Virus record (IMG/VR): IMGVR_UViG_3300031779_000006
Coordinates: 1-37,336 of that record
DNA: 37,336 bases
Source of the DNA: a virus
Lineage: Duplodnaviria; Caudoviricetes
Strand: one strand, 5' to 3'
The translations under genes and the position numbers were made by a program. A model generated the notes under the pieces. It saw only the letters and a program-made list of their open reading frames with translations, ran no database searches and was not told the DNA's origin. Positions 16,787 through 35,525 of the stretch are shown piece after piece (the stretch's first letter is position 1; each line of letters opens with the position of its first letter).

Positions 16787-17323
16787 ATGCCGAAAAAAGG
16801 GCAACCCCGAAAATGGCGGGGTACCGACGCGCGCCAGCTGATAGCCGCGCTGAAAAAGGCCGGGATCAAGGGCGAAGACATCTGGTACTCCGCCGATAAC
16901 CATATCCAGATCAGGTGCCCGGACGGTGAGGTTGTCACCCTCCCGTCCGACCTGAGTGCCGCGCGTACCTACGCCAACGCCCGCCGACAGCTCGGGCTTC
17001 ACGGCGCCGCCATCCCCGCCCGCGGCGGGGGCGGATCCCGGAACGACCACGGTCGCCCGGAGCGCCACAACGGCCACCACCGCCGGCTCGCAATGGTCAC
17101 CCGCTGGAACCCCGGAGAGACTTACGGGCTGGCCACCTCCCGCGATAAGATCACCTGGTTCATCTCCCGGTCGCGGCTGCGGCCCGGGGTGGCAGAGGAG
17201 CTGGCAGAGGGCAGGTTCGTCACGTTCACCGGCAACCCGGTGCCCGACCTGCACCAGCGGTACCCGCACGCAGTAGACGTCAGGCCCGCTGAGCCCCCGG
17301 CCCGAGGAGAGAAGATCGCATGA
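16787..17323 (+). CDS. HicA-like domain fused to cold-shock (OB) domain
   Basis: N: RQLIAALKKAG...NHIQIRCPDGEVVTLP; C: VTRWNPGETYGLATSRDKITWFISRSRL...LAEGRFVTF...PHAVDVRP. Confidence 0.7.
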   Translation: MPKKGQPRKWRGTDARQLIAALKKAGIKGEDIWYSADNHIQIRCPDGEVVTLPSDLSAARTYANARRQLGLHGAAIPARGGGGSRNDHGRPERHNGHHRRLAMVTRWNPGETYGLATSRDKITWFISRSRLRPGVAEELAEGRFVTFTGNPVPDLHQRYPHAVDVRPAEPPARGEKIA

Positions 17324-17696: not shown

Positions 17697-18050
17697 GTGT
17701 CCGTGCTCACGTCAACCGGGAGGCATACGCGGCCCCGACCCCGTCAGCGAACGCCCTTCCGCCTCATCCTCCTCACGATCATCGTCCCGGTCGTGCTCGC
17801 CCTGCTCGTCGCGTCCGGTGAGCTCGGCCGTCACGGCTGGGCCAGCTTCATCTTCCGCGTGGCCGGGACGGGCGCGACCGCCGCCACTCCGGCCGACCTG
17901 AACCTGCCCAAGGTCCGCCCTGTGCCGCCGCCGCCGGTCATCGTGGTCATGGTCGTGCCGCAGCTCGCGCACGCCAAGACGATGACGGTGACCATCCTGG
18001 TCTGGAAGGGCGAGCACCTGCTGGTCGTGCCGAAGTGGCCGCTGCCGTGA
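17697..18050 (+). CDS. membrane protein
   Basis: SD GGGGAG, GTG; hydrophobic helix; GTGA overlap. Confidence 0.65.
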   Translation: MSVLTSTGRHTRPRPRQRTPFRLILLTIIVPVVLALLVASGELGRHGWASFIFRVAGTGATAATPADLNLPKVRPVPPPPVIVVMVVPQLAHAKTMTVTILVWKGEHLLVVPKWPLP

Positions 18051-18919
18051 CCGCCACCGCTACTCGTCCCGAGCGGACACTGTCCCGCAACCCGGTCGAT
18101 GCCTGGATGGACGGCAGCTACCGGTTCGCCGGCTCGGCAATCAAGCGCAAGACGATCGCCGTGATCCTGCTCGGGCTGCCCGCGCTGGCCCCGCTGTTCT
18201 TCATCTCCCGCCCGGTGATCGAGCGCAGCAGCAGCACCTTGACCGGCGTCAACGCCGACGTGCTCGGCAGCGGGTCGATGCTCCTGCTGCTGGCCACCCT
18301 GGCGATCACCCCGGCCGTCACGCTCACTGGCCAGCGGTGGTTCGTCCCGCTACGCCGCTGGTACGGAGTCGTGCTCGCCTGCAACGCCCTGGCCGACGCG
18401 ATCATCGCCTCGATCACGGGTGCGTTCACCGGGGGCGTTCCGGGGAGGATCTTCGGCCACACGTTCCTGCTGGCGGGGCTGATGATGGTGCTGGTCATGA
18501 TGCCGCTGGCGATCACCGCCAACGCGTGGTCGATGCACTGGCTCGGCCGGTACTGGCAGACCCTGCAGCGGTTCACTTACGCTGTTTGGGCACTGCTGTT
18601 CGTGCACCTGGCCCTGCTGGAAGGCTTCGGGATCCAGAACGGCCGCAACGGCCCGTCTGGTGCGGTTGACGGGACGCCGATAGAGCACCAGCGTTTGTAT
18701 CAGTTGATCGCGGTCTCGGTCATCCTGCTCGTGCTCCGCATCCCCCCGGTCCGCCGCTGGGTGACCGCGCAGCGTAAGGCCGACCGGGCGTGGCTGCCGT
18801 GGCTGGTGTTTCTGCCACTGATCATCCTGGCGGTTGTCGCGTATGCCTACATCATCAACGAACTGTGCTTTAAGGGCGTGGCCGCGTTCCGGATGCAGCT
18901 GCCTGGCGGCGACGGATAG
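18047..18919 (+). CDS. MsrQ/ferric-reductase-like transmembrane protein
   Basis: LATLAITP...LRRWYG...PLAITAN...LGRYWQTLQRFTY...FVHL; multiple TM helices. Confidence 0.8.
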   Translation: MTATATRPERTLSRNPVDAWMDGSYRFAGSAIKRKTIAVILLGLPALAPLFFISRPVIERSSSTLTGVNADVLGSGSMLLLLATLAITPAVTLTGQRWFVPLRRWYGVVLACNALADAIIASITGAFTGGVPGRIFGHTFLLAGLMMVLVMMPLAITANAWSMHWLGRYWQTLQRFTYAVWALLFVHLALLEGFGIQNGRNGPSGAVDGTPIEHQRLYQLIAVSVILLVLRIPPVRRWVTAQRKADRAWLPWLVFLPLIILAVVAYAYIINELCFKGVAAFRMQLPGGDG

Positions 18920-19441: not shown

Positions 19442-19465
19442 GCCCGCGGCCGTTAGGGAGCCGGG
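19442..19465 (+). promoter_or_regulatory. leader hairpin motif copy 1 (small terminase)
   Basis: GCCCGCGGCC-GTTAG-GGAGCCGGG. Confidence 0.75.
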
Positions 19466-19483
19466 TTCCGGAGAGGAGTCCCG

Positions 19484-19846
19484 GTGCCCGAGCCGTCAGA
19501 ACTCGATCGGCTGGTGCTCGGCCCTGATGCCGCGTTCGCCGAGGCCGCGTCCCCGCCGCCGAAGACGCCGCCGCGCCGCAAGGGCAAGATCGAGCTCGCG
19601 GTCGGCCGGGATCTGCGTGCCATGCCCGCCGCACTGCGCGCCTCCGCGCTGGCTGCCTCCGCCCTGGACCTGGCCCGCGACCTGGACGAAACCGAGATGA
19701 CCCCGCGTGACAAGGCCGGGATCGCGCGCGAGCTGCGCATGCACATGAATGACCTGGCCGCGCAGGCGCCTGGCGAGCGCAAAGGCGACTCCACCGACGA
19801 GGTCCGGGAGCGGCGCGAGCGGCGGCTGGCCGCGACCGGGGAATAA
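19484..19846 (+). CDS. terS: terminase small subunit (probable)
   Basis: Helical ALDLARDLD...ARELR...DEVRERRERR pattern typical of actinophage TerS; upstream of TerL. Confidence 0.7.
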   Translation: MPEPSELDRLVLGPDAAFAEAASPPPKTPPRRKGKIELAVGRDLRAMPAALRASALAASALDLARDLDETEMTPRDKAGIARELRMHMNDLAAQAPGERKGDSTDEVRERRERRLAATGE

Positions 19847-20148
19847 CCCGCCCCTTACGGTATGCTCTTAGTATCCAAGACAAATTACCGAGCAAGGATA
19901 CTGATGGGCACATTCCGCGAGGAGATGGCATCCCGGCAGGTGACCCCGGTCTGGCTTAACCTGTATCAGCTGGGAGCAGGCGCCGTCTGATGGCATCGCA
20001 ACCGAGCGGGCTATGACTGCGCGGGCGATGTGCCAGTACGGGCCGGCGCTCGCCGAGTTGAAGGAATACGACGAGTTACAGTCTTACACGGTATCCTTAT
20101 CAGCAGTAGCGGCCGGGAGCTAGGCCCGGCCAGGACACGAGGAGACAC

Positions 20149-20943
20149 ATGCAGATCACGCGAACCGAGACGCCGACCGGCGGCCTGAACCGCACCCGAC
20201 GCGAGGAGATCGTCCCGCTCAACACCGGCTCCCGCGAGGTGGAGCCCGAGTTCTACCTGGACAGCTCCGAGTCCGAGGGCTGGCCCTGGGACAGCGACCC
20301 GTCCCGGAACACCTGGGACATCCAGGTCCCGGCGATGCGCGGCGTTCTCGTCCCGTTCGAGCAGCTGGACTCCCAGGCCGCGGACGAGCAGGCCGGCGGG
20401 TCCGACGAGGAGGGCGGCGTCTTCGCCTACGGGTTCAGCAACCGCTACCAGATGTTCGGCAGCGAGCCGGACGACGGCGACCTGAACAGCTCCAACGTCG
20501 ACCGCAAGCTGGCGGACTACATCGCCAAGTACTTCGACCGCGAGGGCAAGCCCCGCGGCGGCACCGAGATCATGGAGGCGATCAAGGCCGCCGACAGGCG
20601 CTACATGGGCGAGTTCCGCAAGGACGACCGGGACGAGCGCCCGGTCCGCGCCCGCGTCGTGTTCACTGACGGGGCGCTCCGCGACGCCGACGCGTTCCGC
20701 AGGTACCTGGCCCAGGCCACCCTGGACAAGGAAACCGGCTACGGCTCGCACGGCGACTGGGACGAGGTCTGGGCCATCGCCATCATCGGCCCGGCCGAGG
20801 GCGGCGGCAACGAGGCCCACCGGCAGTACCAGGACCTGGCCGCGGATCACCCCTGGATCCACAGCTACAACTTCGAGGCCGTCGTCAACCCCGACGAGAT
20901 CGCCGAGGACATCGCCGTCGCGGTGGTGCCCACCCAGGCGTAA
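20149..20943 (+). CDS. vWA-domain (MIDAS) protein
   Basis: FYLDSSES (DxSxS), GGTEIMEAI, VVFTDG; SD GAGGAG; TATCCT -10 upstream. Confidence 0.75.
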   Translation: MQITRTETPTGGLNRTRREEIVPLNTGSREVEPEFYLDSSESEGWPWDSDPSRNTWDIQVPAMRGVLVPFEQLDSQAADEQAGGSDEEGGVFAYGFSNRYQMFGSEPDDGDLNSSNVDRKLADYIAKYFDREGKPRGGTEIMEAIKAADRRYMGEFRKDDRDERPVRARVVFTDGALRDADAFRRYLAQATLDKETGYGSHGDWDEVWAIAIIGPAEGGGNEAHRQYQDLAADHPWIHSYNFEAVVNPDEIAEDIAVAVVPTQA

Positions 20944-20992
20944 CCCCAGAGCCGTAGTCCAGCTGCCGCGGCGGGGCTACGCTTAGCACCAA

Positions 20993-21017
20993 GCCCGCGG
21001 CCTAAGACGGAGCCGGG
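20993..21017 (+). promoter_or_regulatory. leader hairpin motif copy 2 (large terminase)
   Basis: GCCCGCGGCC-TAAGAC-GGAGCCGGG, preceded by TACGCT. Confidence 0.75.
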
Positions 21018-21052
21018 ATTTCCTCTCCCCCCGGGAGGTCCCGGCTCCTGTC

Positions 21053-22732
21053 ATGTCCGTCCTCACCGTCGTACCGGATGTCTGGCTGCCAGACGGCACC
21101 GTGCTGCGCGGCCAGGATGCTCTCGGCGTGCAGCAGCCCAGATTCTGGACCGCTCCGCCCCGGCACCGGGTCAAGACCGATGGCTGCCCGGCCTGCGCGA
21201 ACGCCGACTACGCCGCCGGCTGCGGGGACTATGCCTCGGCCGACATGCTCGAATGGGCGGCCGGGCTCGGCTACGACCTGGATCCGTGGCAGCAGTGGTG
21301 GCTGACCGAGCTGTGCGGGACCAAGCCGGACGGCCGCTGGTCCGCGTTCGAGGGCATGCTGATCTGCTCCCGGCAGAACGGGAAGAACCAGGCTGCTGAG
21401 GTGCGGGAACTCGCTGGCATGTTCTTGTTCGGCGAGTCGATGATCATCCATACCGCTCATGAGTTCAAGGCCGCCGCGGAGCATTTCCGCCGGGTCCGGG
21501 ACATGGTCACCGGCTGGGACGAGCTGCGCCGCCGGGTCAAGGCCGTCACCACCTCCCACGGCGACGAGGCCATCGAGCTGCGGCCCGCCCCGACGCTGAT
21601 CTTCGGCTCCGGCGGCCGGCGCATCCGCCGCAACGTCGCCGCCCGGCTGCGGTTCCTGGCCCGCTCCCGCGGATCGGGCCGCGCGTTCACCGCCGACACG
21701 GTGGTTTACGACGAAGCGATGATCTTGAGCGACGAAGTGGTCGGGGCCTCGCTGCCGACCCTGAGCGCCGTGCCGAACCCGCAGGTCATCTACATGGCCA
21801 GCGCCGGTTACCGGGACTCCATCCAGCTGGCCGCGGTGCGTCGCCGGGTGCTCAAGCGCGACCCCACGCTGATGGGCGCCGAGTGGTCGATCAACCCGCA
21901 CACCGACACCTGCCCGCGCGATGAGATGCGGGGCCGCAAAGTCAACCGGTACGTGGTCTGCGCACAGCACGACGACCGGGATGACCCGCGCTCCTGGGCC
22001 AAGGCCAACCCGGCGCTCGGCGTGCGGATCGCCGTCGACCACGTCGTGCACGAGCTGGAGGCGATGACCGCCCCGACGTTCGACCGGGAAAGGCTCGGCG
22101 TCGGCGACTGGCCGGCCGGGGACGAAGCCTGGGCGGTGATCAGCGAGGAGGCGTGGGGCGCCTGCGCGATGTCCGACCCCGGTGGCGCCACCCGGCCGGT
22201 TACCTTCGCCATCGACATCGACCCCGATATGCTGTCCGCCTCCATCGCCGCCTGCTGGGAGCGGCCCGCCCAGCCCGGCAGCCCGGAGCCCAGGTTCGTG
22301 ATCGAGATCCCGCGCGGCTGCCACCGGGAGGGCACCGCCTGGATCATGCCGCAGCTGCTGGAGCTGCGCCGTAAGTGGAAGCCTGCCGCTGTCGCTATCC
22401 CGCGCAACGGCCCGGCCGCCGCGCTGATCAGTGACGCCGAGAAGCAGGGCATGGAGATCTTCGCGATGTCCAGCGCGGACGAGGCCGCCGCGTTCACCCT
22501 GCTGGTCACCGGGGTCCGCGACCGGACCCTCCTGCACCTGGGCCGCGAGCTCGCTCCCGGCCTGCACTCCGCGGTAGCCAGTGCCGAGACCCGCGACGTC
22601 GGCGACGGCGGCCGGGCCTGGTGCCGCCGCGACTCCGCATCCGACATCACCCCCGTTACCAGCGCGACCAACGCGCACTGGGCGCTGAACCGCAAGCGCC
22701 GTCATTACGATCTTTTGGCTTCAGTCAGGTAG
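21053..22732 (+). CDS. terL: terminase large subunit
   Basis: LDPWQ, SRQNGKN (Walker A), VVYDEA (Walker B), WAKANPALG, FAIDID nuclease, SDITPVTS. Confidence 0.95.
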   Translation: MSVLTVVPDVWLPDGTVLRGQDALGVQQPRFWTAPPRHRVKTDGCPACANADYAAGCGDYASADMLEWAAGLGYDLDPWQQWWLTELCGTKPDGRWSAFEGMLICSRQNGKNQAAEVRELAGMFLFGESMIIHTAHEFKAAAEHFRRVRDMVTGWDELRRRVKAVTTSHGDEAIELRPAPTLIFGSGGRRIRRNVAARLRFLARSRGSGRAFTADTVVYDEAMILSDEVVGASLPTLSAVPNPQVIYMASAGYRDSIQLAAVRRRVLKRDPTLMGAEWSINPHTDTCPRDEMRGRKVNRYVVCAQHDDRDDPRSWAKANPALGVRIAVDHVVHELEAMTAPTFDRERLGVGDWPAGDEAWAVISEEAWGACAMSDPGGATRPVTFAIDIDPDMLSASIAACWERPAQPGSPEPRFVIEIPRGCHREGTAWIMPQLLELRRKWKPAAVAIPRNGPAAALISDAEKQGMEIFAMSSADEAAAFTLLVTGVRDRTLLHLGRELAPGLHSAVASAETRDVGDGGRAWCRRDSASDITPVTSATNAHWALNRKRRHYDLLASVR

Positions 22733-22738
22733 GCAGAC

Positions 22739-23068
22739 ATGAACGGGCTAGACGAGGCCGCCGTGGTGGCCAGGCAGGACCTGATCGCAGCCGACCCCCG
22801 GGCGCCCTGGGATGTCCTGGTGCTGGCCGGCCACGTGCAGCCGTACATCGAGGCCGCGCAGGACCCCCGGGTGAGCATCGACATCCTGCCCGTGCCGCTA
22901 CCGCCACGATCAGCCAGCAAGACCGGCACCGAAGACACCGCAGGAGGAGACCATGCCGCCCAGGACCCATCACACCACAGCCGAAGCAGCCGAGCCGGAA
23001 GCGGCGCCGGGCACCAGCCCGGTACCCGGAAAACCGCTGAGCCAGGTGGAGGCGGAAGCACCGCCTGA
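22739..23068 (+). CDS. hypothetical protein
   Basis: SD AGGTAGG; plausible N-terminal half; 3' end overlaps next ORF by 116 nt. Confidence 0.5.
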   Translation: MNGLDEAAVVARQDLIAADPRAPWDVLVLAGHVQPYIEAAQDPRVSIDILPVPLPPRSASKTGTEDTAGGDHAAQDPSHHSRSSRAGSGAGHQPGTRKTAEPGGGGSTA

Positions 23069-23216
23069 CGAGGAGACCGCCGCGCTGTGGGCCGCCGAGT
23101 ACGAGTCCCGGATGGGGGCTCATGAGGCCGCCCTGGCCGCGGCTGCGGCACCCGCTGAGGCCGAAGCCGCCGAGGAGACGAGCAACCCGCGGGACTGGTC
23201 ACCGTCTGAGTTATAG
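22953..23216 (+). CDS. acidic Ala/Glu-rich hypothetical protein
   Basis: Strong SD AGGAGGAG, high GC3. Confidence 0.7.
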   Translation: MPPRTHHTTAEAAEPEAAPGTSPVPGKPLSQVEAEAPPDEETAALWAAEYESRMGAHEAALAAAAAPAEAEAAEETSNPRDWSPSEL

Positions 23217-23279
23217 CCGCGTACACCCTCTATATAGTCGGCGCGCGGCGCTTACCCCACGCCAGATCGGAAAAAAGTT

Positions 23280-23585
23280 ATGACAACTTTGAGTGAGCGC
23301 CCGGCTCCGCTCCCGGACCGGATCCAGGAGGACCGCACCGAGCGGGCCGAGGCCGCCGGCGCCGTCGCGGAACAGGTCCACGGCCGGGCCGTGCTCACCG
23401 CCATCGGCGCGGTGTTCTTCGCCATCGGCTGGGTGATCGGAGCCGTCGTGAGCATCCTCGGGTACATGTGGGGCGCGCTCCGGTTCGGGTACGCCCAGGG
23501 CCGGATGGTCGTGCCGTCGCCGCCCCGGACGCCGAGCCAGCCTAGGCCGGCGAGCAGCGGTGCCTTACCAGGTCACCCCGGTTGA
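23280..23585 (+). CDS. membrane protein
   Basis: Long hydrophobic segment; TATAGT -10-like element upstream. Confidence 0.7.
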   Translation: MTTLSERPAPLPDRIQEDRTERAEAAGAVAEQVHGRAVLTAIGAVFFAIGWVIGAVVSILGYMWGALRFGYAQGRMVVPSPPRTPSQPRPASSGALPGHPG

Positions 23586-23781
23586 CGGCGGCTTCAAGGT
23601 GGTCAACACCGAGACCGGCAAGATGGTCAACCCGGGCGGCAGGCCGCTGCCGCACGTGATCGCCACCAAGCAGTTTCGGGTGCTGTCCGGACTGGAGAAC
23701 GGCTGGGCGCCGACCGGTGAGCCGTCCGAGCTGACCCCGGACGACAAACCTGACCTGTACGCCTGGGACAGCGCCAGCTGA
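23560..23781 (+). CDS. hypothetical protein
   Basis: MPYQV...FKVVNTETGK pattern, high GC3. Confidence 0.7.
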   Translation: MPYQVTPVDGGFKVVNTETGKMVNPGGRPLPHVIATKQFRVLSGLENGWAPTGEPSELTPDDKPDLYAWDSAS

Positions 23782-23793
23782 TCCGGACGGCCG

Positions 23794-24069
23794 CTACCCG
23801 CGCCGGCCGCCGGTCGCCTGCCGCAGCGCCCGGGCTGCGCCGGACCCGCCCGGGTAGCGGAACGCGCGCTGCTGCGCCGAGCCGGCCGGGGCGGCGCTGC
23901 GGTCCCCGTCCACGCCGGGTTCACCCATGTTGTCTTCCATGGCGTTCATGTGGTCGCCGGCGGCGCTCATGTGGGCCTTGGCCATCGCCAGGTGCCCGGC
24001 CGGGCTCATGTCCGGGGCGCCGTCGTCGTGCGCGTCCAGGTCGGTCTTCGGGGTCTTGTCGTCGGCCAT
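23794..24069 (-). CDS. hypothetical protein
   Basis: SD GAGGAGGAG on minus strand, high GC3. Confidence 0.75.
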   Translation of the reverse strand: MADDKTPKTDLDAHDDGAPDMSPAGHLAMAKAHMSAAGDHMNAMEDNMGEPGVDGDRSAAPAGSAQQRAFRYPGGSGAARALRQATGGRRG

Positions 24070-24192
24070 CTCTCCTCCTCGTGCCGGGGATGGCCGCCGG
24101 CTCCGCGGGCACCGGGCCGCAGCGGCTAGCCTTCAGTATGACCCAGGTTCCGCCGTCTCGCCCGAAGGCCCGCCGCGTCCGATAATGGTGGC

Positions 24193-24351
24193 ATGCAGCT
24201 GATAGTGGACCTGGATGACGGGACCGGCCGGGACAAGCTGATGGAGATCCTGGACACACTGTCCGCCTACCGCCCGTATGTGCGCACGGCGATCATCGTG
24301 GCCAGCTACGATCCGGCCCAGGTGGAGCCGCCCGCCGAGACGGTGGCGTGA
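24193..24351 (+). CDS. small hypothetical protein (52 aa), possibly leaderless; not in ORF track
   Basis: GATAAT 6 nt before ATG; MQLIVDLDDG... Confidence 0.6.
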   Translation: MQLIVDLDDGTGRDKLMEILDTLSAYRPYVRTAIIVASYDPAQVEPPAETVA

Positions 24352-24506
24352 TGGCCGCGGTGATCGTCCGGCTGGAATGCGCCGACACCGGAGAGGCCGA
24401 TCAGCTCGCCGCGGCCGTCCGGGACGCCGGGGTGCTGACATACCAGGCCCGCGAGGACGGCAGGACGATCTTCATTCACGTCACCGAGACCATGGTCGAA
24501 CCGTGA
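24351..24506 (+). CDS. small hypothetical protein (51 aa), not in ORF track
   Basis: TGATG overlap; MAAVIVRLEC... Confidence 0.6.
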   Translation: MAAVIVRLECADTGEADQLAAAVRDAGVLTYQAREDGRTIFIHVTETMVEP

Positions 24507-24700
24507 TCCTCATCGAGCAGCATGCCGGATTCTGCAGGCGACGGCGGCCAGGCTGCGGCGAAGCGGGCATCTGGAAACCCTTCTACCAGGGCTTCATCTG
24601 CGAGAACTGCCTGCTGCTCGATCAGGCTGACGTCCGGGCCGGGCGCAATCCTCCCGGTGACGGCGGCGTCGGCACGCTGTTCCGCCAGGCGGACGAATGA
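24503..24700 (+). CDS. small four-Cys protein (65 aa)
   Basis: GTGA overlap; C-x6-C...CENC. Confidence 0.6.
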   Translation: MILIEQHAGFCRRRRPGCGEAGIWKPFYQGFICENCLLLDQADVRAGRNPPGDGGVGTLFRQADE

Positions 24701-24939
24701 GCGATCCTCCCGCCGATGAGAACATCGTCTCGGTGCACATCCCGTCTGCCGCGCTGGCCGGCGAGATCGAGTTCGCGATCGCCTACACCATCGCGTGCAA
24801 CCCGGGCCGTAATTTCGCCGCGCCGCCGGATCGCAAGCTGCTCGCCGAGGCGATCGTGGCCATGCTGTACGAGCGCGCGGAGGCCGGGCTGTCAGGAATG
24901 AGGATCGAAAACGCCGGCCAGCCTGGCGGGAGTTCATAA
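24697..24939 (+). CDS. hypothetical protein
   Basis: ATGA overlap. Confidence 0.6.
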   Translation: MSDPPADENIVSVHIPSAALAGEIEFAIAYTIACNPGRNFAAPPDRKLLAEAIVAMLYERAEAGLSGMRIENAGQPGGSS

Positions 24940-24965
24940 ACAGACGTAACCTTGCGTTAGCCATA

Positions 24966-24989
24966 GCCCGCGGCCGGAACGGAGCCGGG
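24966..24989 (+). promoter_or_regulatory. leader hairpin motif copy 3 (portal)
   Basis: GCCCGCGGCC-GGAAC-GGAGCCGGG, preceded by TAACCT. Confidence 0.75.
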
Positions 24990-25108
24990 TCCGTCCGTCC
25001 GTCCGCAGGGGAGCCTTCAGGTCCGTGAAGGCGATCGAGCGTATCACCTGCCGCGTCAGCGGTTCTTCTGCGCACCCTCTTTCGTGTGAGAGGGGGTGAT
25101 ATGGGAGT

Positions 25109-26679
25109 ATGGGACTTTTCGAGCGTATCCAGTCGAGCAGGGCTGAGACACGTGTGATTGGCGGGGTGCCTTGGCGCCCTTGGGACAGTCCTTACTGGTT
25201 AGGCGTTTTGATACTGGAGGGCCTGTCCATCCTAGTAGACAGGTTTTCGGCACCGACCGGGCTCTCGGTCTGCCCGCCCTGTACGCCGGCACCAACCTGC
25301 TGGCGTCCTCGTGCGCGGCGCTGCCGCTGAAGCTGTACGTCAAGCCCGGCCCGCGTGACAACCGGACCCGGCGGTACACCGGCCCGTCGATTTTCGACAA
25401 CCCGAGCTCCACCGGAACGATTTTCGACTGGCTGTTCACGGCCATGACGTCGCTGCTGCTGCAGGGCAACGCGTGGGGGTACATCACCGGGCGCGACGGC
25501 TACGGGCTGCCCAGCGGCATTGAGTGGATCCCGCCCGAGGACGTCAACGTCACCGACGACGAGATGCAGCCGTGGAACCCGATGCGTGCCCGGATCTACG
25601 TCTACGGCCGGCTGATGGACCGCAGCGAGCTGTTCCACGTCAAGGCGTTCAGCTTGCCCGGGCGCATCGAGGGGATTTCCCCGCTGCGCGCGTTCGCGCT
25701 GACCATCCTGTCCGGGTTGGAGGCCGAGCGCTACGGGACCGACTGGTATATGGCCGGGGGTTTCCCACCTGGGACTTTCCAGAACAACGAGCTGGAGGTC
25801 TCCGACGAGCAGGCCCAGGAGATCCGGGCCATGCTCGTGTCCACGATGCGCCGCCGTGAGCCGCTGGTGTACGGACGCGACTGGGACTACAAGCCAGTAG
25901 TGGTGCCGCCGAGCGAAGCGCAGTTCATTGAGGCGCTACGGATGAATGCGACGCAGATTGCCTCGGTGCTAAACCTGCCACCAGATCGCATTGGTGGTAC
26001 TCGCGGGGACAGCTTGACCTATAATACTGTAGAGCAAAGCACACTGCAAGTTATAGAAGCGTTGCGGCCGTGGCTCGTGAGGCTGGAGACGGCGTTCTTC
26101 AACCTGCTGCCGACCAACCGGTACTGCCGCTTCAACAGCGATGCCATGCTCAAGACCGATCTCAAGACCCGCACCGAGATCTACGACCTGCAGCGCTCAA
26201 TGGGCCTGCGGTCCATTGACGAGATGCGCGACCTGGAGGACCTGGAACCGATCCCCGGCGGGCAGGGCAACGAGTACATCCCCCTGGACGTCATGGTGGC
26301 GATGGCCCGGTCGATCCGCGGCATCCCCAAGTCGATGGAGTCGGCGATCGACCTGGAGATGGACCTGGCGGCCGACAAGCTGCAGGACCTGGCCAAGGAA
26401 GGGCTCGCCGCGCCGACTCCCGCGCCGACTCCCGAGGTTCCCTCGGCGGAGCAGATGCTCGGGCAGATCATCGGATCCCAGCGGCACTACGGCACGCGCG
26501 AGGAGCGCGACGACGCCGAGCTCATCTGGAATTTCCTGCAGGCCAAGCGCGCGGCGGAGCGCGCCCAGGCCCACCGGCAGGCGGACGGCCCCGAGTTCGT
26601 GGGCGCCTGGATCCCGAGCAAGCGGGACCTGGTGCTGTCCGGGGCGAATGGCAGCGGAAACGGCGGCGATGGTCACTGA
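25109..26679 (+). CDS. HK97-family portal protein, reading frame broken near 25199-25203 (alternative TTG starts 25171/25180)
   Basis: LLLQGNAWGYI, LFHVK...GISPL, SEAQFIE...IASVLNLPP..IG, YNTVEQ, SIDEMRDLEDLEPIPGG; portal-like N-terminus MGLFERI lies in another frame. Confidence 0.9.
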
Positions 26680-26694
26680 TGAAAGGTCTGTTAC

Positions 26695-27720
26695 ATGAGT
26701 GAATCCAGGGCCGAGATGACGTCAGCGGCCATCAACGACCTCCCCGATTCTGCTTTTGCCTATATAGAGCCTGGTGGCTCTAAGGATGCCGGGGGGAAGA
26801 CGATACCTAGGAGCAAGCGGCACTTTCCTGTGCATGACGAGGCTCACGCTAGGAATGCACTCGCTCGCGCTCCGCAGTCGCCCTTCGGCAAGCAGGCCAT
26901 GAGCAAGATCCTGGCCGCATGCCGCAAGTTCGGGGTCACGGTCTCCGGCGACAACCGCGCCGCGTTCGGCGAGCTGCCCCCGGACGGCATGCCCGAGCGC
27001 CGCTTCACCCGGTTCCCGCCCGAGGTGCGCCAGGAGGCCGAGCACGGCCCGCAGTTCATCTACGGCTACGCGGCGGCGTTCGGCAAGCTGAGCCGCAAGC
27101 TGGGCGGCTTCGTGGAGCAGGTGGACCCGACCGCGTTCAACGAGACCAAGACCCTCGGCTGGCCCGACGTGGTCTGCAGGTACAACCACAAGGACGACGC
27201 CCTGCTGGGTACCACGCACGCCGGCACGCTGCGGCTGGCCACTGACCAGACCGGGCTCGCCTATGAGGTCAATCCGCCGCACGCCCGCGCCGACGTCCTC
27301 GAATACGTGACCCGCGGCGACGTGCGGCACAGCTCGTTCGCGTTCCGGGTGTTCCCCGGCGGCGACGAGTGGGGCGTGTCGGAGTTCAACTACCCGATGC
27401 GCACGTTGCTGTCGGTGCAGCTGGTAGACGTGGCGCCCGTGTTGGACCCGGCCTACCCGGATGCCACCGCCGGCGCCCGCGCGCTCAACGGCGCAGTCCA
27501 GAGCCTCGCCGACTGGGTGCAGGCCGACGTGGAGGAGGTCCGCAGCAGGCTCAACGAAGGCCGGGCGATGGAGTTCTTCAAGCGCTACCGCGACATCGAC
27601 GGCGGCAGGCCGAAGCCTGACCAGCGCGTCCGGCCGCCCAAGAAGCCGGTACTGACCGGTGCCCAGGCCCTGCTCACCCTGCAGGCCAACATGGAAGACC
27701 CCTGGGTGGACGAGGAGTAA
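26695..27720 (+). CDS. HK97-family prohead protease with extra N-terminal (DUF6582-like) domain
   Basis: GYAAAF, GGFVEQV, YNH, SSFAF, DVAPVLDPAY; N-terminal NDLPDSAFA...RHFPVHDEAHARNALAR. Confidence 0.9.
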   Translation: MSESRAEMTSAAINDLPDSAFAYIEPGGSKDAGGKTIPRSKRHFPVHDEAHARNALARAPQSPFGKQAMSKILAACRKFGVTVSGDNRAAFGELPPDGMPERRFTRFPPEVRQEAEHGPQFIYGYAAAFGKLSRKLGGFVEQVDPTAFNETKTLGWPDVVCRYNHKDDALLGTTHAGTLRLATDQTGLAYEVNPPHARADVLEYVTRGDVRHSSFAFRVFPGGDEWGVSEFNYPMRTLLSVQLVDVAPVLDPAYPDATAGARALNGAVQSLADWVQADVEEVRSRLNEGRAMEFFKRYRDIDGGRPKPDQRVRPPKKPVLTGAQALLTLQANMEDPWVDEE

Positions 27721-27745
27721 CAACCACGCAGTAACCAGTGCAAGC

Positions 27746-27784
27746 GCGCTGAGGCCGTAGCTGATCAACGGACGGAGCGAGCGC
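27746..27784 (+). promoter_or_regulatory. leader hairpin motif, covarying copy 4 (major capsid)
   Basis: GCGCT-GAGGCC-GT(N13)AC-GGAGCG-AGCGC. Confidence 0.6.
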
Positions 27785-27820
27785 AGGTGCAGAAGGCAAC
27801 CAACGCGAAAGGGAAAGAAA

Positions 27821-29077
27821 ATGCCTTCTGAAGTCGCAAAGCGTCTGAGGGATCGGCGCCTCCAGGTATGGGAGGAGGCCAAGGGCATCGCCGAATCCGC
27901 CGCATCCGAGAACCGCGCCCTCACCGATGAGGAGCAGGGCAAGTGGGACGCGATGCAGGAGGAGATGCAGAAGCTTGACGTCCGGATCAAGGCGGTCCTG
28001 GACACCGAGAAGCGGGCCAAGGAAGCCGACGACGCGTTCGACGCGCTGTCCGGCCGCAAGCCCGCTGAGGGCCAGGCCGCCCGCACCGCCGGCGGGTCCA
28101 AGATGCTGGACGAGGTCCGCAAGTGGGCGCGCGGAGACGAGGGCGCCGGACGTGCCCTGGAGATCCGCCGCGCACCCGAGCTCGGCCCGATCAACTACCG
28201 CGTCCTGACTGCTGGGACGGGCGGTTCCGCTAGCAGTATCGTGCCGATCGATTTCTACGACATGCTCATCGCACACCTGATCGAAGTTTCGGGTGTCATG
28301 CAGTGCGGACCGACCGTGCTCAACACCGGAGGCGGCGAGACGCTGCAGGTGCCGAAGACGACCGCGCACTCCACCGCGGCCTCCGCGGCCCAGGCAGGCA
28401 CGCTCCCGACGTCGGACCCGACGTTCGGCATGCAGCCGTTGTCGGCCTTCAAGTACGGCATCATGCTCCAGGTCGCCCGCGAGCTCATTGACGACACGGC
28501 CGTCGATCTCCTCGGGTACCTGGCCATGCAGGCGGGACGCGCGCTGGGCAATGCCTTCGGCAACGACCTGGTCAACGGGACTGGCACCGGCCAGCCGGCC
28601 GGCCTGGTCAGCACCGCGACGGTCGGCGTGACCGGCTCGGTGACCGGCGTGGCCGGCGCGCCCAGCTACGCCAACCTGGTCGACCTGGAGTACAGCGTAA
28701 TAGCTCCATACCGACAATCAAGGTCGTGTTACTGGCTGGCCGCGGACAAGACCATCGGCGGGTTCAGGAAAATTACCGACACGGTCGGCAGGCCGATCTG
28801 GGAACCGTCCGCGGTCCTCGGGTCTCCCGACCTGCTGCTCGGCAAGCCCCTGGTCGCCGACCCGTTCATGCCCGCCATGGCGACCGGGTCCAAGTCCATC
28901 GCGTTCGGCGACTTCAGCCAGTACTTCGTGAGGCTGGTGGGAGGCGTGAGGTTCGAGCGTTCGGACGACTTCGCCTTCGGTTCGGACCTTGTGACCTTCC
29001 GTGCTATACTTAGAGGAGATGGTACCCTCGTGGACCGCACGGGCGCGATCAAGATGTACCAGGGCGCAGCTACCTGA
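27821..29077 (+). CDS. HK97-fold major capsid protein
   Basis: Coiled-coil delta domain, VARELIDD, GTGTGQPAG, DTVGRPIW, LLGKPL, IAFGDFSQY. Confidence 0.95.
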   Translation: MPSEVAKRLRDRRLQVWEEAKGIAESAASENRALTDEEQGKWDAMQEEMQKLDVRIKAVLDTEKRAKEADDAFDALSGRKPAEGQAARTAGGSKMLDEVRKWARGDEGAGRALEIRRAPELGPINYRVLTAGTGGSASSIVPIDFYDMLIAHLIEVSGVMQCGPTVLNTGGGETLQVPKTTAHSTAASAAQAGTLPTSDPTFGMQPLSAFKYGIMLQVARELIDDTAVDLLGYLAMQAGRALGNAFGNDLVNGTGTGQPAGLVSTATVGVTGSVTGVAGAPSYANLVDLEYSVIAPYRQSRSCYWLAADKTIGGFRKITDTVGRPIWEPSAVLGSPDLLLGKPLVADPFMPAMATGSKSIAFGDFSQYFVRLVGGVRFERSDDFAFGSDLVTFRAILRGDGTLVDRTGAIKMYQGAAT

Positions 29078-29271
29078 CCTGCGGAAATGCGGCTACGCAT
29101 GCAGGCGTCACCGGCAAGCCCAGGCTCTGGCTGCAGGACGATGAGCGCATGCTGTAACCGCACTACTTCCACGGAACGTCACAAGGTTTGTTACACGATG
29201 AGTAGCTGGTATACTGGGAGAACGGACGGTAAGCCCACCGCCCGCTCTCAGCCAGGACCCTGTATAGGAGG

Positions 29272-30093
29272 GTGCCAGCTATGCCAGAGACTACGCGCAC
29301 GTGCTCATTCGAGGGTTGCGAGAAACCTCGCTACTCACGGGATTACTGCACAGCGCACTACCGGCAGGCTCTCAACGGCAAGCCGCTCAAGCCGCTCCGG
29401 CCGTATGTCAGGCGCGGACCTGAATGCCTCGCGGACGGATGCACGGCTAAACCGCATTCGCACGGATACTGCAAGGTCCACTGGCAGCGGCTGTCCCGTT
29501 ACGGCCGCCTGGAGCGCGTCAAGACGCAGTACGAGCCAGGGACGACTTGCTCCGTCGATGGCTGCGAGTCCCCCGTGAAGGCCGCAGGGTACTGCGACGT
29601 GCACTACATGCGCGTCCGGCGCAACGGAGAGCCCGGCACAGCAGCTTCCCAGGCAGGACTGCGACGCCGGAGCCAGTACGAGGGACTGGAGTGCGCGGTC
29701 GAAGGATGCACCAGGCCGGTAAAGTGCCTGACCTGGTGCAATATGCACTACCAGCGTTGGAAGCGCACCGGAGACCCGGCCGGGAAGTGGGGCGCTAACC
29801 CGCGGCAGAGCCAGGGATACACCACATCAGACGGCTATCGGATGGCACCCGACCGGCGAAACGGCCGTCCTGTCCTTGAGCACCGGCTGGTCATGGAGCA
29901 GGTGATCGGCCGCCCGCTGCACCGGCACGAGGAGCCGCACCACAAGAACGGCATCCGGGACGACAACGATCCGGGGAACCTGGAACTCTGGGTGAAGTGG
30001 CGTCAGCCGAACGGCCAGCGGCTGTCCGACCTGATCGAGTTCGTCGTGACGTACTACCCCGACGAGGTACGAACCGCTCTGGAGGCGACGTAG
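29272..30093 (+). CDS. free-standing HNH homing endonuclease with four C-x4-C-x9-C-x2-H repeats (start GTG 29272 or ATG 29281)
   Basis: CSFEGC..., CLADGC..., CSVDGC..., CAVEGC...; EHRLVME...HHKNGIRDDNDPGNLELW. Confidence 0.9.
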   Translation: MPAMPETTRTCSFEGCEKPRYSRDYCTAHYRQALNGKPLKPLRPYVRRGPECLADGCTAKPHSHGYCKVHWQRLSRYGRLERVKTQYEPGTTCSVDGCESPVKAAGYCDVHYMRVRRNGEPGTAASQAGLRRRSQYEGLECAVEGCTRPVKCLTWCNMHYQRWKRTGDPAGKWGANPRQSQGYTTSDGYRMAPDRRNGRPVLEHRLVMEQVIGRPLHRHEEPHHKNGIRDDNDPGNLELWVKWRQPNGQRLSDLIEFVVTYYPDEVRTALEAT

Positions 30094-30100
30094 CAAGCAG

Positions 30101-30141
30101 CCCCGGCCCGCGCAGCGAGTGGCCGCCCGCGCGGGCCGGGG
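30101..30141 (+). terminator. 13-bp perfect hairpin
   Basis: CCCCGGCCCGCGC...GCGCGGGCCGGGG. Confidence 0.55.
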
Positions 30142-30162
30142 AGCCAGGAAAGCGAGGCTAGC

Positions 30163-30750
30163 ATGCGCTCGGTCACGATGATCGTCAACCTGTCCGGCGG
30201 CGGCCCGGGCGGCCGGGACTGGCGGGACTTCCCGGCCGGGGCGTCGCTGGACGTGGAGGACTGGGAAGCCGAGGACCTGATCCGGATCGGGCTCGCCGTC
30301 GCCGGTCCGGAGGGGGGCGAGGGCGCTTCCGCCGCGCCCGAGCCCGAGGCGGAGGCCCCGGCCGCTGAGTCCGAGCCCGGGGCCGGGGCACCCGCCGAGC
30401 CGGCCGAGTATGAAGACGGCACGGGCGTCTCCCCGCTGGCCGAGGTGTCTGTGCTGGCCGAGACTTCCGGGACCGCGGCGGGGGCAACGGACCCAGAGCC
30501 AGAACCCCCGGCGCCCGCACCCGAGCCGGAGCCAGCGCCGCCGGAGCCGGAGCAGCTGCCGGACGAGGCGCCCGTGTCCCCGGAACCTCCCACCGATGGG
30601 AACAACCCGGAGCCGCCTCCGCTGGCCCCGGCGCCGCACCAGAACAAGCAAGCCTGGATCGACTGGGCGATCAGCCAGGGCGCCGATCCGGATACCGCTC
30701 ACAACATGACCAAGGCCGACCTGATGTCCCGTTACGGTGGTCGGCTCTAG
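30163..30750 (+). CDS. Pro/Glu-rich protein with small C-terminal helical domain, probably head-associated
   Basis: EAEDLIRIGLA N-domain; NKQAWIDWA...TKADLM C-domain; follows the capsid gene. Confidence 0.75.
   Translation: MRSVTMIVNLSGGGPGGRDWRDFPAGASLDVEDWEAEDLIRIGLAVAGPEGGEGASAAPEPEAEAPAAESEPGAGAPAEPAEYEDGTGVSPLAEVSVLAETSGTAAGATDPEPEPPAPAPEPEPAPPEPEQLPDEAPVSPEPPTDGNNPEPPPLAPAPHQNKQAWIDWAISQGADPDTAHNMTKADLMSRYGGRL
30586..30603. repeat. near-palindromic repeat copy 3 (inverted, intragenic)
   Basis: CCTCCCACCGATGGGAAC is the reverse complement of 9526-9543. Confidence 0.85.
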
Positions 30751-30770
30751 ACTGTCCAATAAGAGGGATT

Positions 30771-30793
30771 GCCCGCGGCCTACGGGAGCCGGG
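30771..30793 (+). promoter_or_regulatory. leader hairpin motif copy 5
   Basis: GCCCGCGGCC-TACG-GGAGCCGGG (C-UACG-G tetraloop), preceded by TAGACT. Confidence 0.75.
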
Positions 30794-30813
30794 CTCCGAG
30801 ATAGGAGCCCATC

Positions 30814-31374
30814 ATGGCTGACAGCACCCAGGTCCCCGGCTACGACCGGACCCTGGCCAACCGCGAGCCCCCGGGCCGGTCCGGTACCGGCAGCGGCGGC
30901 GACCTCGTCACCAGCGAGCCCGGCCAGTACCCGCCGGTCGCGCCGGGCGACACCACGATCTTCGGCGGGCCGCTGCCCACCGGGACCGGCGCGCCTGGCA
31001 CCGCCGGAGGCGACTACGGCGGCCCCGACACCAGCCAGGCCGGCCAGCTGGGCGACAGCTTCACCGGGCTGTCCCGGGACGACATCACCGATACGGGCGC
31101 GCCCGGTACTGATGGCGCGGACATCCCGGCTGGGGCCGGCCCGGACACGGTGAAGTTCACCCGGCCCGGGTCCTACCTGTCCGGCAGCTACGCCCAGGAC
31201 ACGGTCCGCGGCAAGGTCGATGGCCCGGCCGAGTGGACCGAGGCCAACTCCGGCGGCTACGGGACAGACGGGCCGAAGCTGCCCGGGATGAAGGAACCGA
31301 CCCCGGACGGCGGCCCGTTCCAGCCGGGTTCCGGCGGCCGGGTCATGCGCGGCGGCCGGGCCGTCCGCGGCTGA
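30814..31374 (+). CDS. Gly/Pro/Thr-rich protein, probably virion-associated
   Basis: SD AGGAG; repeated TGAPGT. Confidence 0.75.
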   Translation: MADSTQVPGYDRTLANREPPGRSGTGSGGDLVTSEPGQYPPVAPGDTTIFGGPLPTGTGAPGTAGGDYGGPDTSQAGQLGDSFTGLSRDDITDTGAPGTDGADIPAGAGPDTVKFTRPGSYLSGSYAQDTVRGKVDGPAEWTEANSGGYGTDGPKLPGMKEPTPDGGPFQPGSGGRVMRGGRAVRG

Positions 31375-32453: not shown

Positions 32454-33151
32454 TGGCCCAGCCGTGGCCGGACGGAGACGAGCCGGGCAACCCCGGCGGC
32501 CTGGAGATGGGCACCGTCAAGGCGGACGGCGGGGAGTGCGCCCGGGAATGGCCGAACGGGGCACCCGGCCACGGCTACTACGACCCGCCGCCCACTGTGC
32601 CCCCGCCGCCGTACGTGCCCGCGCTGGAGGTTACCGGGGTGCAACCGGATCACGGCGACGTGGCCGGCGGCGCCCTCACGGACGTGTACGGCGCGGACTT
32701 CACCACGGGCGGCACTACCACGGTCACGTTCGGCGGCGCGGCGGCGACATCGGTCGTGGTGGTCACGCCGGAGCACCTGACCTGCTTCCCGCCAGCCGGC
32801 ACCGCAGGCCCCGCCGACGTCACCGTCACGACCCCGGACGGCTCGGCGACCCTGCCCGGCGGGTACACCTACGAGCTGGCAACCGCACCGGTCACGGCGG
32901 TCGCGGACTTCACCTACACCCCGTCCAACCCGACCACCCAGACGATGGTCACGTTCGACGCGTCGGCCAGCACACCCGGCGCCGGGCAGACGATTACCAG
33001 CTACGCGTGGCTGTTCAACAACTCGGCTACCCGGAGCGGTGTGACGTGCACCTGGCGGCTGCCCAGCGGTCACGGCGAGTACGACGCCCAGTTGACCATC
33101 ACCGACTCCGGGAGCGCAACCGACAGCCTGACGCAGGTGATCACGATATGA
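32453..33151 (+). CDS. IPT/TIG plus PKD Ig-like domain protein
   Basis: VTGVQPDHG..AGG...VYGADF...VTFGG; ADFTYTP...VTFDASAS...ITSYAW.F...LTITDSG. Confidence 0.85.
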   Translation: MAQPWPDGDEPGNPGGLEMGTVKADGGECAREWPNGAPGHGYYDPPPTVPPPPYVPALEVTGVQPDHGDVAGGALTDVYGADFTTGGTTTVTFGGAAATSVVVVTPEHLTCFPPAGTAGPADVTVTTPDGSATLPGGYTYELATAPVTAVADFTYTPSNPTTQTMVTFDASASTPGAGQTITSYAWLFNNSATRSGVTCTWRLPSGHGEYDAQLTITDSGSATDSLTQVITI

Positions 33152-33915
33152 CCGAGCCCCGCATCCTTGTCATCACCCCGTCCCGGGGGCGGTCCGGGCG
33201 GCTCACGGCTATGCTGGACGCGACCCTGTCCACCTCCGGGCCGGGTACCCACGTCGCGGTGTGCACCGATGCCGACGACCCGGACCGCGGCGGGTACGAG
33301 CAGCTGGCCGCCGACGCCCGCGAGCTGTGGCCGGGCCGGACCTTCTGGCACCGCGGCCCGCGCAAGTCCCTGGCCGCCTGGACCAACTACCTGGCCGTGT
33401 CCTGGCCGCGCGCCGCCCGGTACGGTTACCTGGCCAGCCTGGGCGATGACCACGTCCCCCGTACGCAGGGCTGGGACGGTGTCCTGACAGGTGCGATCGA
33501 GGCGATGGGCGGTACCGGGATCGCCTACGGGGACGACGGCTGGCAGCATGAGAACATGCCGACCGCCTGGGTGATGAGCGCCGGCATCGTCCGGGTGCTC
33601 GGCTGGCTGTTCCTGCCCGGCCTCGGGCACGGCTACTTCGGCGACAACGCCATCCGGGACCTGGGCGAGCTGGCCGGCTGCCTGCGCTACTGCCCGGGGG
33701 TGAAGATCATCCACGAGCACCCGGACGCCGGCAAGGCCCCCGGGGACGTCACCTACGCCGAGGCGGTGCCGTCCTGGGCGGGTGATGAGCAGGCGTACCT
33801 GGCCTGGGGCCGCTCCCCCGGTGACGATATGCCCAGTCAGCGTGACCTGGACGTGATCGCCGTCCGGAACGTCATGAGGCTGCGGGCACGCACCGTGCCG
33901 GGGGTGCCGGCGTGA
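33148..33915 (+). CDS. GT-A fold glycosyltransferase
   Basis: ILVITPSRGR, LGDDH, GYFGDN, IIHEHP. Confidence 0.8.
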   Translation: MTEPRILVITPSRGRSGRLTAMLDATLSTSGPGTHVAVCTDADDPDRGGYEQLAADARELWPGRTFWHRGPRKSLAAWTNYLAVSWPRAARYGYLASLGDDHVPRTQGWDGVLTGAIEAMGGTGIAYGDDGWQHENMPTAWVMSAGIVRVLGWLFLPGLGHGYFGDNAIRDLGELAGCLRYCPGVKIIHEHPDAGKAPGDVTYAEAVPSWAGDEQAYLAWGRSPGDDMPSQRDLDVIAVRNVMRLRARTVPGVPA

Positions 33916-34469
33916 CCCTGACCGCGCAGCATACCGCCAGGGCCGGGGGCAGCTGGTGTGATATCCAGGGCCACCTGGCGTTCCTGTACGCCCAGGCGGA
34001 AGGCCGGGCGGTGATCGCCGAGCTGGGCGTCCGCGGCGGGAACTCGACCTGCGCGTTCCTGGCCGCGATCGAGACCGCCGGGTCCGGGCAGCTGTGGTCG
34101 GTGGACGTCGCCTCGCCGGGTGTCCCGGTGTCCTGGCACGACCTGCCGTACTGGCATTTCCTGTGCGCCGATGACACCAGCCAGCAGGCCATGGACTGGC
34201 TGCCGCCGAAACTGGACCTGCTGTTCATCGACACCAGCCACGGGCTCGATCACACCCTCGCTGAGCTGACCGCGTACGGTCCGCGGGTCCGGTCAGGTGG
34301 CGTCATCCTGTGCCACGACACCTGCTGGCTGCCCGGCGACGTGGAAACCCGCGAGCCGGTCGGGCCGGTCGCCCGCGCGCTGGATGTATGGTGCCAGGCC
34401 CAACCGTATGAACTGTCTTGGAGCAACCGGGCCGGGTCGTTTGGCCTGGGCGTGATCGAGGTGCCATGA
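33912..34469 (+). CDS. class I SAM-dependent methyltransferase (Methyltransf_24-like)
   Basis: ELGVRGGNST, WSVD, DLLFIDTSH, GGVILCHD. Confidence 0.9.
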   Translation: MTLTAQHTARAGGSWCDIQGHLAFLYAQAEGRAVIAELGVRGGNSTCAFLAAIETAGSGQLWSVDVASPGVPVSWHDLPYWHFLCADDTSQQAMDWLPPKLDLLFIDTSHGLDHTLAELTAYGPRVRSGGVILCHDTCWLPGDVETREPVGPVARALDVWCQAQPYELSWSNRAGSFGLGVIEVP

Positions 34470-34771
34470 GCGACAAGGTGATCGTCGGCGACGGGTCCGC
34501 CCAGCGGATGGCCGAGTGGGAGGCGCAGTACGCGCACGAGTGCGCCGCGGTCGCCGAGGGCTGGTGCCCCGTGCACCGGACCGTGCTGCACCCGGTGGAG
34601 ATCCGCGGCGGCGATGAGATGGTGGCCGGGCACTGCTCGTTGTGCAGCCGGTACTGGTTCTACGACACGAAACTGGCCGAGGTCGGCTGGATGCTGGACC
34701 ACGATCCGCACACCGGAGTGTGGGTGCCGCCGGAGCGGCCGAAGCGGTGGCCCGGCTGGAGCCCGCTGTGA
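34466..34771 (+). CDS. zinc-binding protein, tandem paralogue A
   Basis: CPVH...HCSLC; ATGA overlap. Confidence 0.75.
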   Translation: MSDKVIVGDGSAQRMAEWEAQYAHECAAVAEGWCPVHRTVLHPVEIRGGDEMVAGHCSLCSRYWFYDTKLAEVGWMLDHDPHTGVWVPPERPKRWPGWSPL

Positions 34772-35010
34772 GCATCCTCAAGGTCACCGCGGTCACTGAG
34801 GGCCTGTGCCCGGTGCATGGCACCGAACTGCACCCGGTGCAGATGCAGTACCCGGTCCGGCAGCACGGCCGCGACATCGCCGGGCACTGCTCGCCGTGCG
34901 GCCGGTACTGGTTCTATGACCCGGACGAGGACGAAGCCGGCTGGATGCTGGACCACGATCCGAACACCGGGGTCTGGGTGCCCCCGCAACGCCACGAGTG
35001 GTCGGTGTGA
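34768..35010 (+). CDS. zinc-binding protein, tandem paralogue B
   Basis: CPVH...HCSPC; GTGA overlap. Confidence 0.75.
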   Translation: MSILKVTAVTEGLCPVHGTELHPVQMQYPVRQHGRDIAGHCSPCGRYWFYDPDEDEAGWMLDHDPNTGVWVPPQRHEWSV

Positions 35011-35168
35011 GCCCCCGGCTGGCCAGCCAGGCCCTGGCCGTGGTGGCACTGGGAGCAGCCGTGTACGAGGCGGTTACCAGGCTGGCCCCGTCCTGGCTGC
35101 AGGCCATGTTCATGTGGTTCGTCATCGCGGTGCTCGCCTGGGGCCTGGCGAGGGCGAAGCGGCCATGA
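35007..35168 (+). CDS. small 2-TM membrane protein (53 aa), not in ORF track
   Basis: GTGA/ATGA overlaps; hydrophobic. Confidence 0.6.
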   Translation: MSPRLASQALAVVALGAAVYEAVTRLAPSWLQAMFMWFVIAVLAWGLARAKRP

Positions 35169-35428: not shown

Positions 35429-35525
35429 GCATCCCCAAGGTTCTCCCAGGTAAACTGGCAGTAAGAGCCCCGGCGAGGCAGCAACCTCCCGGGGCAGTGA
35501 CCGAACCTGATGGAAGCAGGCCGGT

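Follow-up and report, generated by a model that had tools for sequence, protein, structure and literature searches.

The window, that is, the whole stretch of DNA analyzed here, is the full 37,336-nt record IMGVR_UViG_3300031779_000006, a 37-kb fragment of an uncultured soil phage, and our subject is a short hairpin motif that recurs in the 5' leaders of its late genes. No close cultured relative was found among 50,697 phage records (best capsid identity, approximately 32%), and the host is probably an actinobacterium, judging from distant prophage relatives and a guanine-plus-cytosine (GC) content of 64 to 75%. Among the window open reading frames (ORFs), matches to PHROGs identify the genes for the terminase large subunit (terL; 21053..22732, + strand; phrog_9, E 2e-60), the portal (25109..26679, +), the prohead protease, and an HK97-type major capsid protein (27821..29077, +). 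The gene at 19484..19846 (+) has no PHROG or Pfam match and is putatively that of the terminase small subunit (terS), given its size, its position, and its conservation in 9 of 10 genomes. Past the capsid region lies a conserved Gly/Pro-rich gene of no assigned function (30814..31374, +).

The pattern GCCCGCGGCC-N3-8-GGAGCCGGG occurs exactly four times in the window, each time between genes and on the + strand, and never in 100 dinucleotide shuffles of the window. A first-pass annotation had reported four such copies, so placed, and the count is borne out. The first copy (19442..19466), a single core in the putative terS leader, scores 37.9 bits in a covariance model of which it was itself a training sequence. 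The second (20993..21017), in the terL leader, the third (24966..24990), and the fourth (30771..30794), ahead of the gene at 30814, are each found by both the exact pattern and the model. The terminal loops are, in order, 5, 6, 5, and 4 nt long, the last being the C-UACG-G loop noted earlier. The hexamers TACGCT (20978..20983, +), TAACCT (24947..24952, +), and TAGACT (30748..30753, +) resemble -10 boxes and lie upstream of copies two, three, and four, as had been described. Of the genes that the annotation had placed downstream, terL is confirmed and terS is putative, and the copy at 24966 precedes a 24-codon upstream ORF (uORF) rather than the portal start (ATG 25109).

In three leaders, the 3' arm of the motif can pair instead with sequence over the ribosome site, and all three of these competing helices are present as first reported. 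One covers the Shine-Dalgarno sequence (SD) and the GTG of the gene at 19484 (19460..19485, +; arms 19460/19475), a long hairpin buries GGGAGG in the terL leader (21009..21048, +; arms 21009/21039), and GGGCTCC/GGAGCCC forms an anti-SD helix ahead of the gene at 30814 (30791..30810, +; arms 30791/30804). A probable sixth copy, with a 7-bp outer stem, lies on the opposite strand (24093..24126, -), ahead of the SD and ATG of a 91-amino-acid ORF of no assigned function (P0001; 23794..24069, -). It was found by a structural descriptor, is weak in the model (E 0.62), has no TANNNT upstream, and was seen only in this phage and one near-identical locus. Elsewhere in the window, an HNH endonuclease is inserted immediately 3' of the capsid gene (29272-30093), and a membrane protein (18035-18919) shows weak similarity, below the cut-off at E 8e-5, to ferric-reductase-like transmembrane proteins.

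A covarying RNA element of late leaders

In the core of the motif, an outer helix of at least 4 pairs leads to an internal loop, with N(1-3)-GG on one strand facing AGC on the other, and then to an inner helix that starts CC/GG. The internal loop, 5'-N-GG/AGC-3', is nearly invariant over approximately five bases, while the terminal loop is free in length, from 3 to more than 25 nt, and often prolongs the stem. In alignment A1, which comprises 61 copies chosen with a pairing descriptor, pair 6:30 is CG in 50 copies, UA in 8, and UG in 3, pair 7:29 is GC in 57, CG in 3, and AU in 1, and pair 11:25 is CG in 59 and UA in 2. Put by position, the pair adjoining the internal loop is GC, CG, or AU (TA too); CG, UA, or UG stands at the one after it, and CG or UA at the inner pair. 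Thirty cells of A1 are changed on both sides of a pair, against 10.9 when shuffled. Covariation had been proposed as a check on the fold, and stem pairs covary both in A1 and in capsid leaders chosen by protein homology. We conclude that the motif is an RNA fold. An RNase III site was ruled out by reasoning, as single copies are too short and the loop bases are invariant.

The capsid leader carries a variant of the motif (27746..27784, +). The first-pass annotation had correctly placed a variant here, reading it as one hairpin with a longer inner stem; it is instead a tandem double core, GG-CCGT-AGC...GG-ACGG-AGC, in which a two-fold axis passing through a 4-bp helix relates one copy to the other. 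Among 57 capsid leaders chosen by protein homology (a less circular set than A1), 52 fit the double core, one of them mis-anchored, and in these the second outer pair is CG in 29, TA in 13, TG in 5, and unpaired in 5. Inspected by eye, the remaining five comprise three shortened double cores, a one-base variant, and a single core. The window copy has a G.G mismatch at a position that is G:C in 47 of the 52 fitting leaders. Double cores likewise lie ahead of major tail genes and some portal genes. The two-fold symmetry of the site suggests that the protein that binds it is dimeric.

The motif recurs in late-gene leaders of uncultured high-GC phages of 100 to 210 kb that together form a clade. 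The exact core pattern was found at 134 loci in IMG/VR, in 101 distinct contexts, some of them by chance. Among 100 distinct matches with flanks, 64 have an SD and a start codon within 50 nt, and a TANNNT lies upstream of 56 of those 64, compared with 8 of the 36 others and a background of 6.5%. The -10 box and the motif are 8 to 31 nt apart, and thus the motif is transcribed and keeps no fixed distance from the promoter. The -10 boxes of the 56 leaders share an extended consensus of approximately GG(C/G)(G/C)-TANCCT, possibly a clade-specific late promoter. Moreover, a search of ten larger phage records with the covariance model gave 35 hits at E<0.05 in 8 of the 10, all on the capsid strand; many of these hits were training sequences, and the training leaves the strand unfixed. 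Two genomes, G008 and G009, lack a single-core hit yet contain double cores.

The genes 3' of the motif encode terminases, portal, capsid, major tail, amidase, and epimerase-like proteins and include other late-cluster genes. The regulon is broader than the head-and-packaging set first proposed, as tail, amidase, and sugar genes belong to it. Nine of 20 leaders of epimerase-like genes in relatives carry the motif, which ties sugar genes to the late program, and in the window, glycosyltransferase- and methyltransferase-like genes lie downstream of the head genes (33148-36649). No motif was detected in distant prophages of Streptomyces, Amycolatopsis, Actinomadura, and others, for which 36 of 39 capsid loci from bacterial genomes were searched (best E 0.18). 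Distant prophage relatives (L442-L480, with capsids 40 to 67% identical, and also L214) have two other conserved folds in the capsid leader, approximately 150 bases ahead of the capsid gene. One is a GGCAGG...CCACC hairpin, often in tandem, and the other is a multi-stem structure followed by an SD-burying hairpin; neither had an Rfam match in the three prophage loci searched.

Rfam 15 gave no match in the window at the gathering threshold, and at E<=10 it gave five subthreshold matches between 19000 and 31500, none on a motif copy. The earlier statement that the motif belongs to no described family agrees with this result. Moreover, no description of the motif, or of a regulon-wide translational switch of late genes, was found in the literature searched, which mostly excluded subscription papers. 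We conclude that the motif is a real, conserved, and uncatalogued RNA element of a late regulon.

Predicted competition with the ribosome site

Folding was predicted for 77 of 79 selected leaders. Two were dropped, L230, which was judged spurious, and L212:15160, which later proved to be a genuine copy. The predicted cost of opening the region from SD to start had a median of 13.8 kcal/mol in the 77 leaders and of 6.8 kcal/mol in 173 control genes, and it fell to 10.3 kcal/mol when the motif was shuffled and to 12.0 kcal/mol when the spacer was shuffled. In 65 of the 77, the cost exceeded the motif-shuffled value. The outer pair of the motif had a probability near 0 in 74 of the 77 full leaders, and forcing the motif to form lowered the opening cost by at least 2 kcal/mol in 67 and raised it in 1. 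In the window, forcing the motif took the cost from 15.8 to 6.3 kcal/mol for terS, from 24.7 to 13.1 for terL, and from 13.1 to 6.1 for the gene at 30814, and the predicted effect was modest in the leader of the probable sixth, minus-strand copy. The ribosome-binding site (RBS) switch proposed in the first-pass annotation is thus predicted by folding for terS, terL, and the gene at 30814; no effect is predicted in the window capsid leader, where the cost of opening the RBS is the same with the motif forced (6.3 and 6.3 kcal/mol), and little for the portal uORF.

When transcripts were folded as they grow, the motif was predicted to form with a probability of 0.85 to 1.0 in 3 of 4 window leaders, until approximately 6 to 18 bases past its end, and its pairing was lost once the partner strand had been transcribed. 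The forced state costs a median of 10 kcal/mol and up to 25, values inflated by keeping the loop unpaired. Energy gaps of this size suggest that capture of the motif would be kinetic and cotranscriptional rather than a refolding at equilibrium.

In the capsid leader, the strand at 27790-27798 pairs with 27822-27830 over the start codon (27790..27830, +). This anti-start strand is conserved across capsid leaders; it is complementary to the start codon plus codon 2 and varies in step with them (Pro versus Ala as second codon). The helix averages 6.6 bp, against 3.9 bp when shuffled, and has at least 6 bp in 37 of 57 leaders. For many capsid leaders, the main effect of binding may instead be to stabilize the RNA or to titrate the protein.

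How the motif might reach the portal gene is more roundabout. The uORF (25025..25099, +; GTG 25025) is a relic of the portal N terminus, and its stop overlaps the portal SD, which is buried by hairpin arms at 25073..25098 (+). The 5' end of the portal gene is thus duplicated: the second start is recoded, and the relic ends on or overlaps its SD hairpin. Similar portal uORFs occur in four relatives (L151, L152, L155, and L157), and in other relatives the motif lies directly ahead of an intact portal gene. We predict, from this arrangement, that translational coupling between uORF and portal relays the motif to the portal gene. The frame of the portal ATG differs from that of the body ORF (25171-26679) and runs into a TTA (25199-25201) that begins a 5-base insert relative to intact alleles. 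We read TTA-led inserts of 4 to 11 bases in 9 of the 33 distinct portal 5' ends surveyed, and the take-off and landing codons are alike in most of them; no indel was seen at the frame break in the covering contigs of the four runs compared. The TTA-led break resembles the UUA-triggered bypassing described for the phiHau3 terminase (PMC10732093).

A candidate late switch, its alternatives, and known systems

We favor, with a probability of roughly 0.55, the reading that the motif is a protein-dependent translational ON switch of late messages. The hairpin in the 5' leader would dock one phage-encoded RNA-binding protein, probably a dimer. By prediction, the hairpin folds first on the nascent RNA, and within approximately 10 to 20 more bases it is displaced by a more stable helix in which the 3' arm of the hairpin masks the SD or start codon, such that the default state is OFF. 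A protein that caught the hairpin in that interval would occupy the 3' arm, and the ribosome site would stay open, the ON state. For the portal, the switch would act via the uORF, whose ribosomes would open the SD hairpin of the portal gene. A fuller version, to which we give somewhat less than even odds, is that one dimeric RNA-binding protein of a new family captures the five-base internal loop on each nascent late message and thereby turns on the genes for packaging, capsid, tail, virion sugars, and lysis in concert; the entire late program would be timed by translation, and the number of sites (single or double) would set output.

Several observations weigh against this switch. Membership in the regulon varies, and several terS, terL, tail, and epimerase leaders have no motif. 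The portal-uORF leader barely shifts when the motif is forced (12.0 to 11.0 kcal/mol), and among capsid leaders, beyond the unaltered one of the window, forcing cuts the opening cost by at least 2 kcal/mol in only 15 of 52. The exact register of the terL motif reaches a probability of only approximately 0.28 even in short transcripts. Moreover, forcing any hairpin takes away pairing partners, the use of a pairing descriptor to pick A1 and the 77 leaders makes the argument from covariation in them partly circular, and p values are inflated because related phages do not count as independent. Finally, neither the Com zinc ribbon (PF10122; best 13 bits against a cut-off of 22.9) nor CsrA (PF02599) was found over the cut-off in five relatives, and the candidate lead for the binder has no informative family or fold match. 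The original proposal of a switch stabilized by a protein or ligand is supported as to a covarying, transcribed hairpin that competes with RBS helices, and the activation by a protein that it proposes is an inference.

That candidate came from all-against-all ORF families built from nine genomes and the window. A CHCC zinc-ribbon family of the early region is present in 8 of the 9 genomes and in 1 of 5 further or repeated records (G016), the four records without it being 65 to 75% complete, and it had one weak match in five bacterial genomes (E 0.007). Its structural model (predicted local distance difference test [pLDDT], 80) had no match in PDB or BFVD at E<=0.001. The family is only a lead, as its presence alongside the motif within a single clade is no proof of function. 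Other candidates were set aside, namely, a K/R-rich repeat protein, because G007 lacks the repeats; Xre and Lsr2-like proteins, as DNA-binding types; and the window ORF at 16787, which has no family match and no relative among the fetched loci. That ORF (16787-17323, 178 amino acids, no Pfam or PHROG match) recalls, by eye, a fusion of HicA-like and cold-shock-like parts. We also note a tail-region protein (L425:7279-7893), with homologs in 8 of 9 genomes and no family match, in which repeated basic AAAGRAAQ segments precede a domain that conserves Cys and His and looks peptidase-like by eye.

Phage late switches are mostly transcriptional and rely on late sigma factors, activators, and antiterminators. 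One alternative is that a protein bound to the 5' hairpin exerts its main effect on transcription elongation, as in nut-like antitermination, or on mRNA stability or processing, and that the RBS helices only tune expression. The motif does sit at the extreme 5' end of late transcripts, its purine-rich internal loop suits arginine-rich binders, capsid copies often have no preceding -10 box, and RBS opening is unaltered in 37 of 52 capsid leaders. We nonetheless consider such an action unlikely, since the 3' arm of the single core complements the SD or start beyond shuffled expectation, which antitermination would not need, and no U tract follows the OFF hairpins in contexts read by eye. The same complementarity, together with a variable distance to the -10 box, makes it highly improbable that the motif is a DNA element, either an operator or a late-activator site beside the promoter. 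Proximity to the -10 box and exact repetition within a genome would fit such a site, but the terminal loop varies from 3 to more than 25 nt with extended pairing, and the stems show G.U-type substitutions and compensatory changes; loop freedom, G.U substitutions, and variable promoter distance all indicate RNA rather than a DNA operator.

What is bound might also differ from what we propose. A late structural protein, such as the N-terminal domain of the protease or a capsid or scaffold protein, could bind the site in feedback that represses or balances virion parts, and autoregulation is established for the P22 scaffolding protein and T4 gp32. The symmetric double site lies at the most highly needed genes, and an N-terminal extension of the protease is common to all nine large relatives. 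Feedback of this kind is quite unlikely, however, as free RNA is already predicted to be OFF and stabilizing the motif only opens the RBS in most single-core leaders. The protease extension itself (window 26695-26960) spans approximately 100 residues outside Peptidase_S78; besides the nine large relatives, 2 of the 39 distant loci have it. Alternatively, a small molecule or ion might stabilize the internal loop and turn late translation on, as the architecture, with its mutually exclusive expression platform and kinetic window, is riboswitch-like. We regard a riboswitch as very unlikely because only approximately five loop bases are near-invariant, the terminal loop is free, and the site is symmetrically duplicated. 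Moreover, no host regulon was seen in five actinobacterial genomes (150 candidates scored in each; best E 0.039), and a metagenome scan, of which 112 contexts were inspected, showed none either; by eye, 24 of its 27 hits with a -10 box resembled the same phage leaders.

If the translational ON switch is correct, actinophages would have, in an RNA switch acting across a whole regulon, a new means of timing virion assembly; their late-gene control is poorly understood, and repeats among them such as the start-associated sequences (SAS) are unexplained. Mu Com, the only translational activator whose description we found, has one target gene. Different leader folds occur in temperate Streptomyces prophages, which may point to a wider family of phage-specific protein-RNA switches. 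The motif would also be a very small (approximately 25 nt) ON switch dependent on a protein, available in dozens of natural variants for reporter work in Streptomyces or Mycobacterium smegmatis, and it would give access by sequence to a large clade of uncultured soil phages.

Some known systems resemble the motif in part. CsrA/RsmA, a dimeric protein that binds two sites, comes to mind because of the GGA in the 3' strand of the motif. That GGA differs, however, in lying in stem and internal loop, and it becomes GAA with a compensatory change in its partner; this GG/GA covariation departs from the invariant loop GGA of CsrA sites. Candidate cis-regulatory folds before capsid, portal, and terminase genes have been described as GP20-a/b and as the csRNAs that Fremin et al. 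(2023) found by covariation in IMG/VR (PMC10690425), a source that also covers T4 gp32 autoregulation. Of the 12 csRNAs of capsid, portal, terminase, or epimerase genes looked up in that set, which was compared by description only, 11 are aquatic or gut, and DNAVirus_3525, from soil and sediment and preceding Phage_capsid, is a possible match. The SAS and extended SAS (ESAS) of cluster K mycobacteriophages (PMC3203893) are likewise repeated, oriented sequences just before actinophage start codons, and the SD region of the gene at 30814 is one base off the 13-bp SAS, the sole window leader that resembles it. SAS, however, precede nonstructural genes and contain the SD, and ESAS are 17-bp inverted repeats for whose hairpins the authors saw little support (PMC3203893), whereas our motif is a covarying element of virion-gene leaders and lies upstream of the SD.

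The system that appears closest in logic is Com of phage Mu, whose binding is proposed to expose the start signals of mom (PMC6483171). As in mom, a short hairpin lies beside a start-burying structure in a late phage message, a feature present in the predicted folds here except in most capsid leaders. Com, however, controls one gene and reads GA in a hairpin loop (GAGNNCC; NGAGNNCC from SELEX; PMC6483171), whereas our motif precedes many late genes and conserves its internal loop while leaving its terminal loop free. By this comparison, Mu Com would share the logic of the late-leader motif and differ from it in protein, site, and scope.

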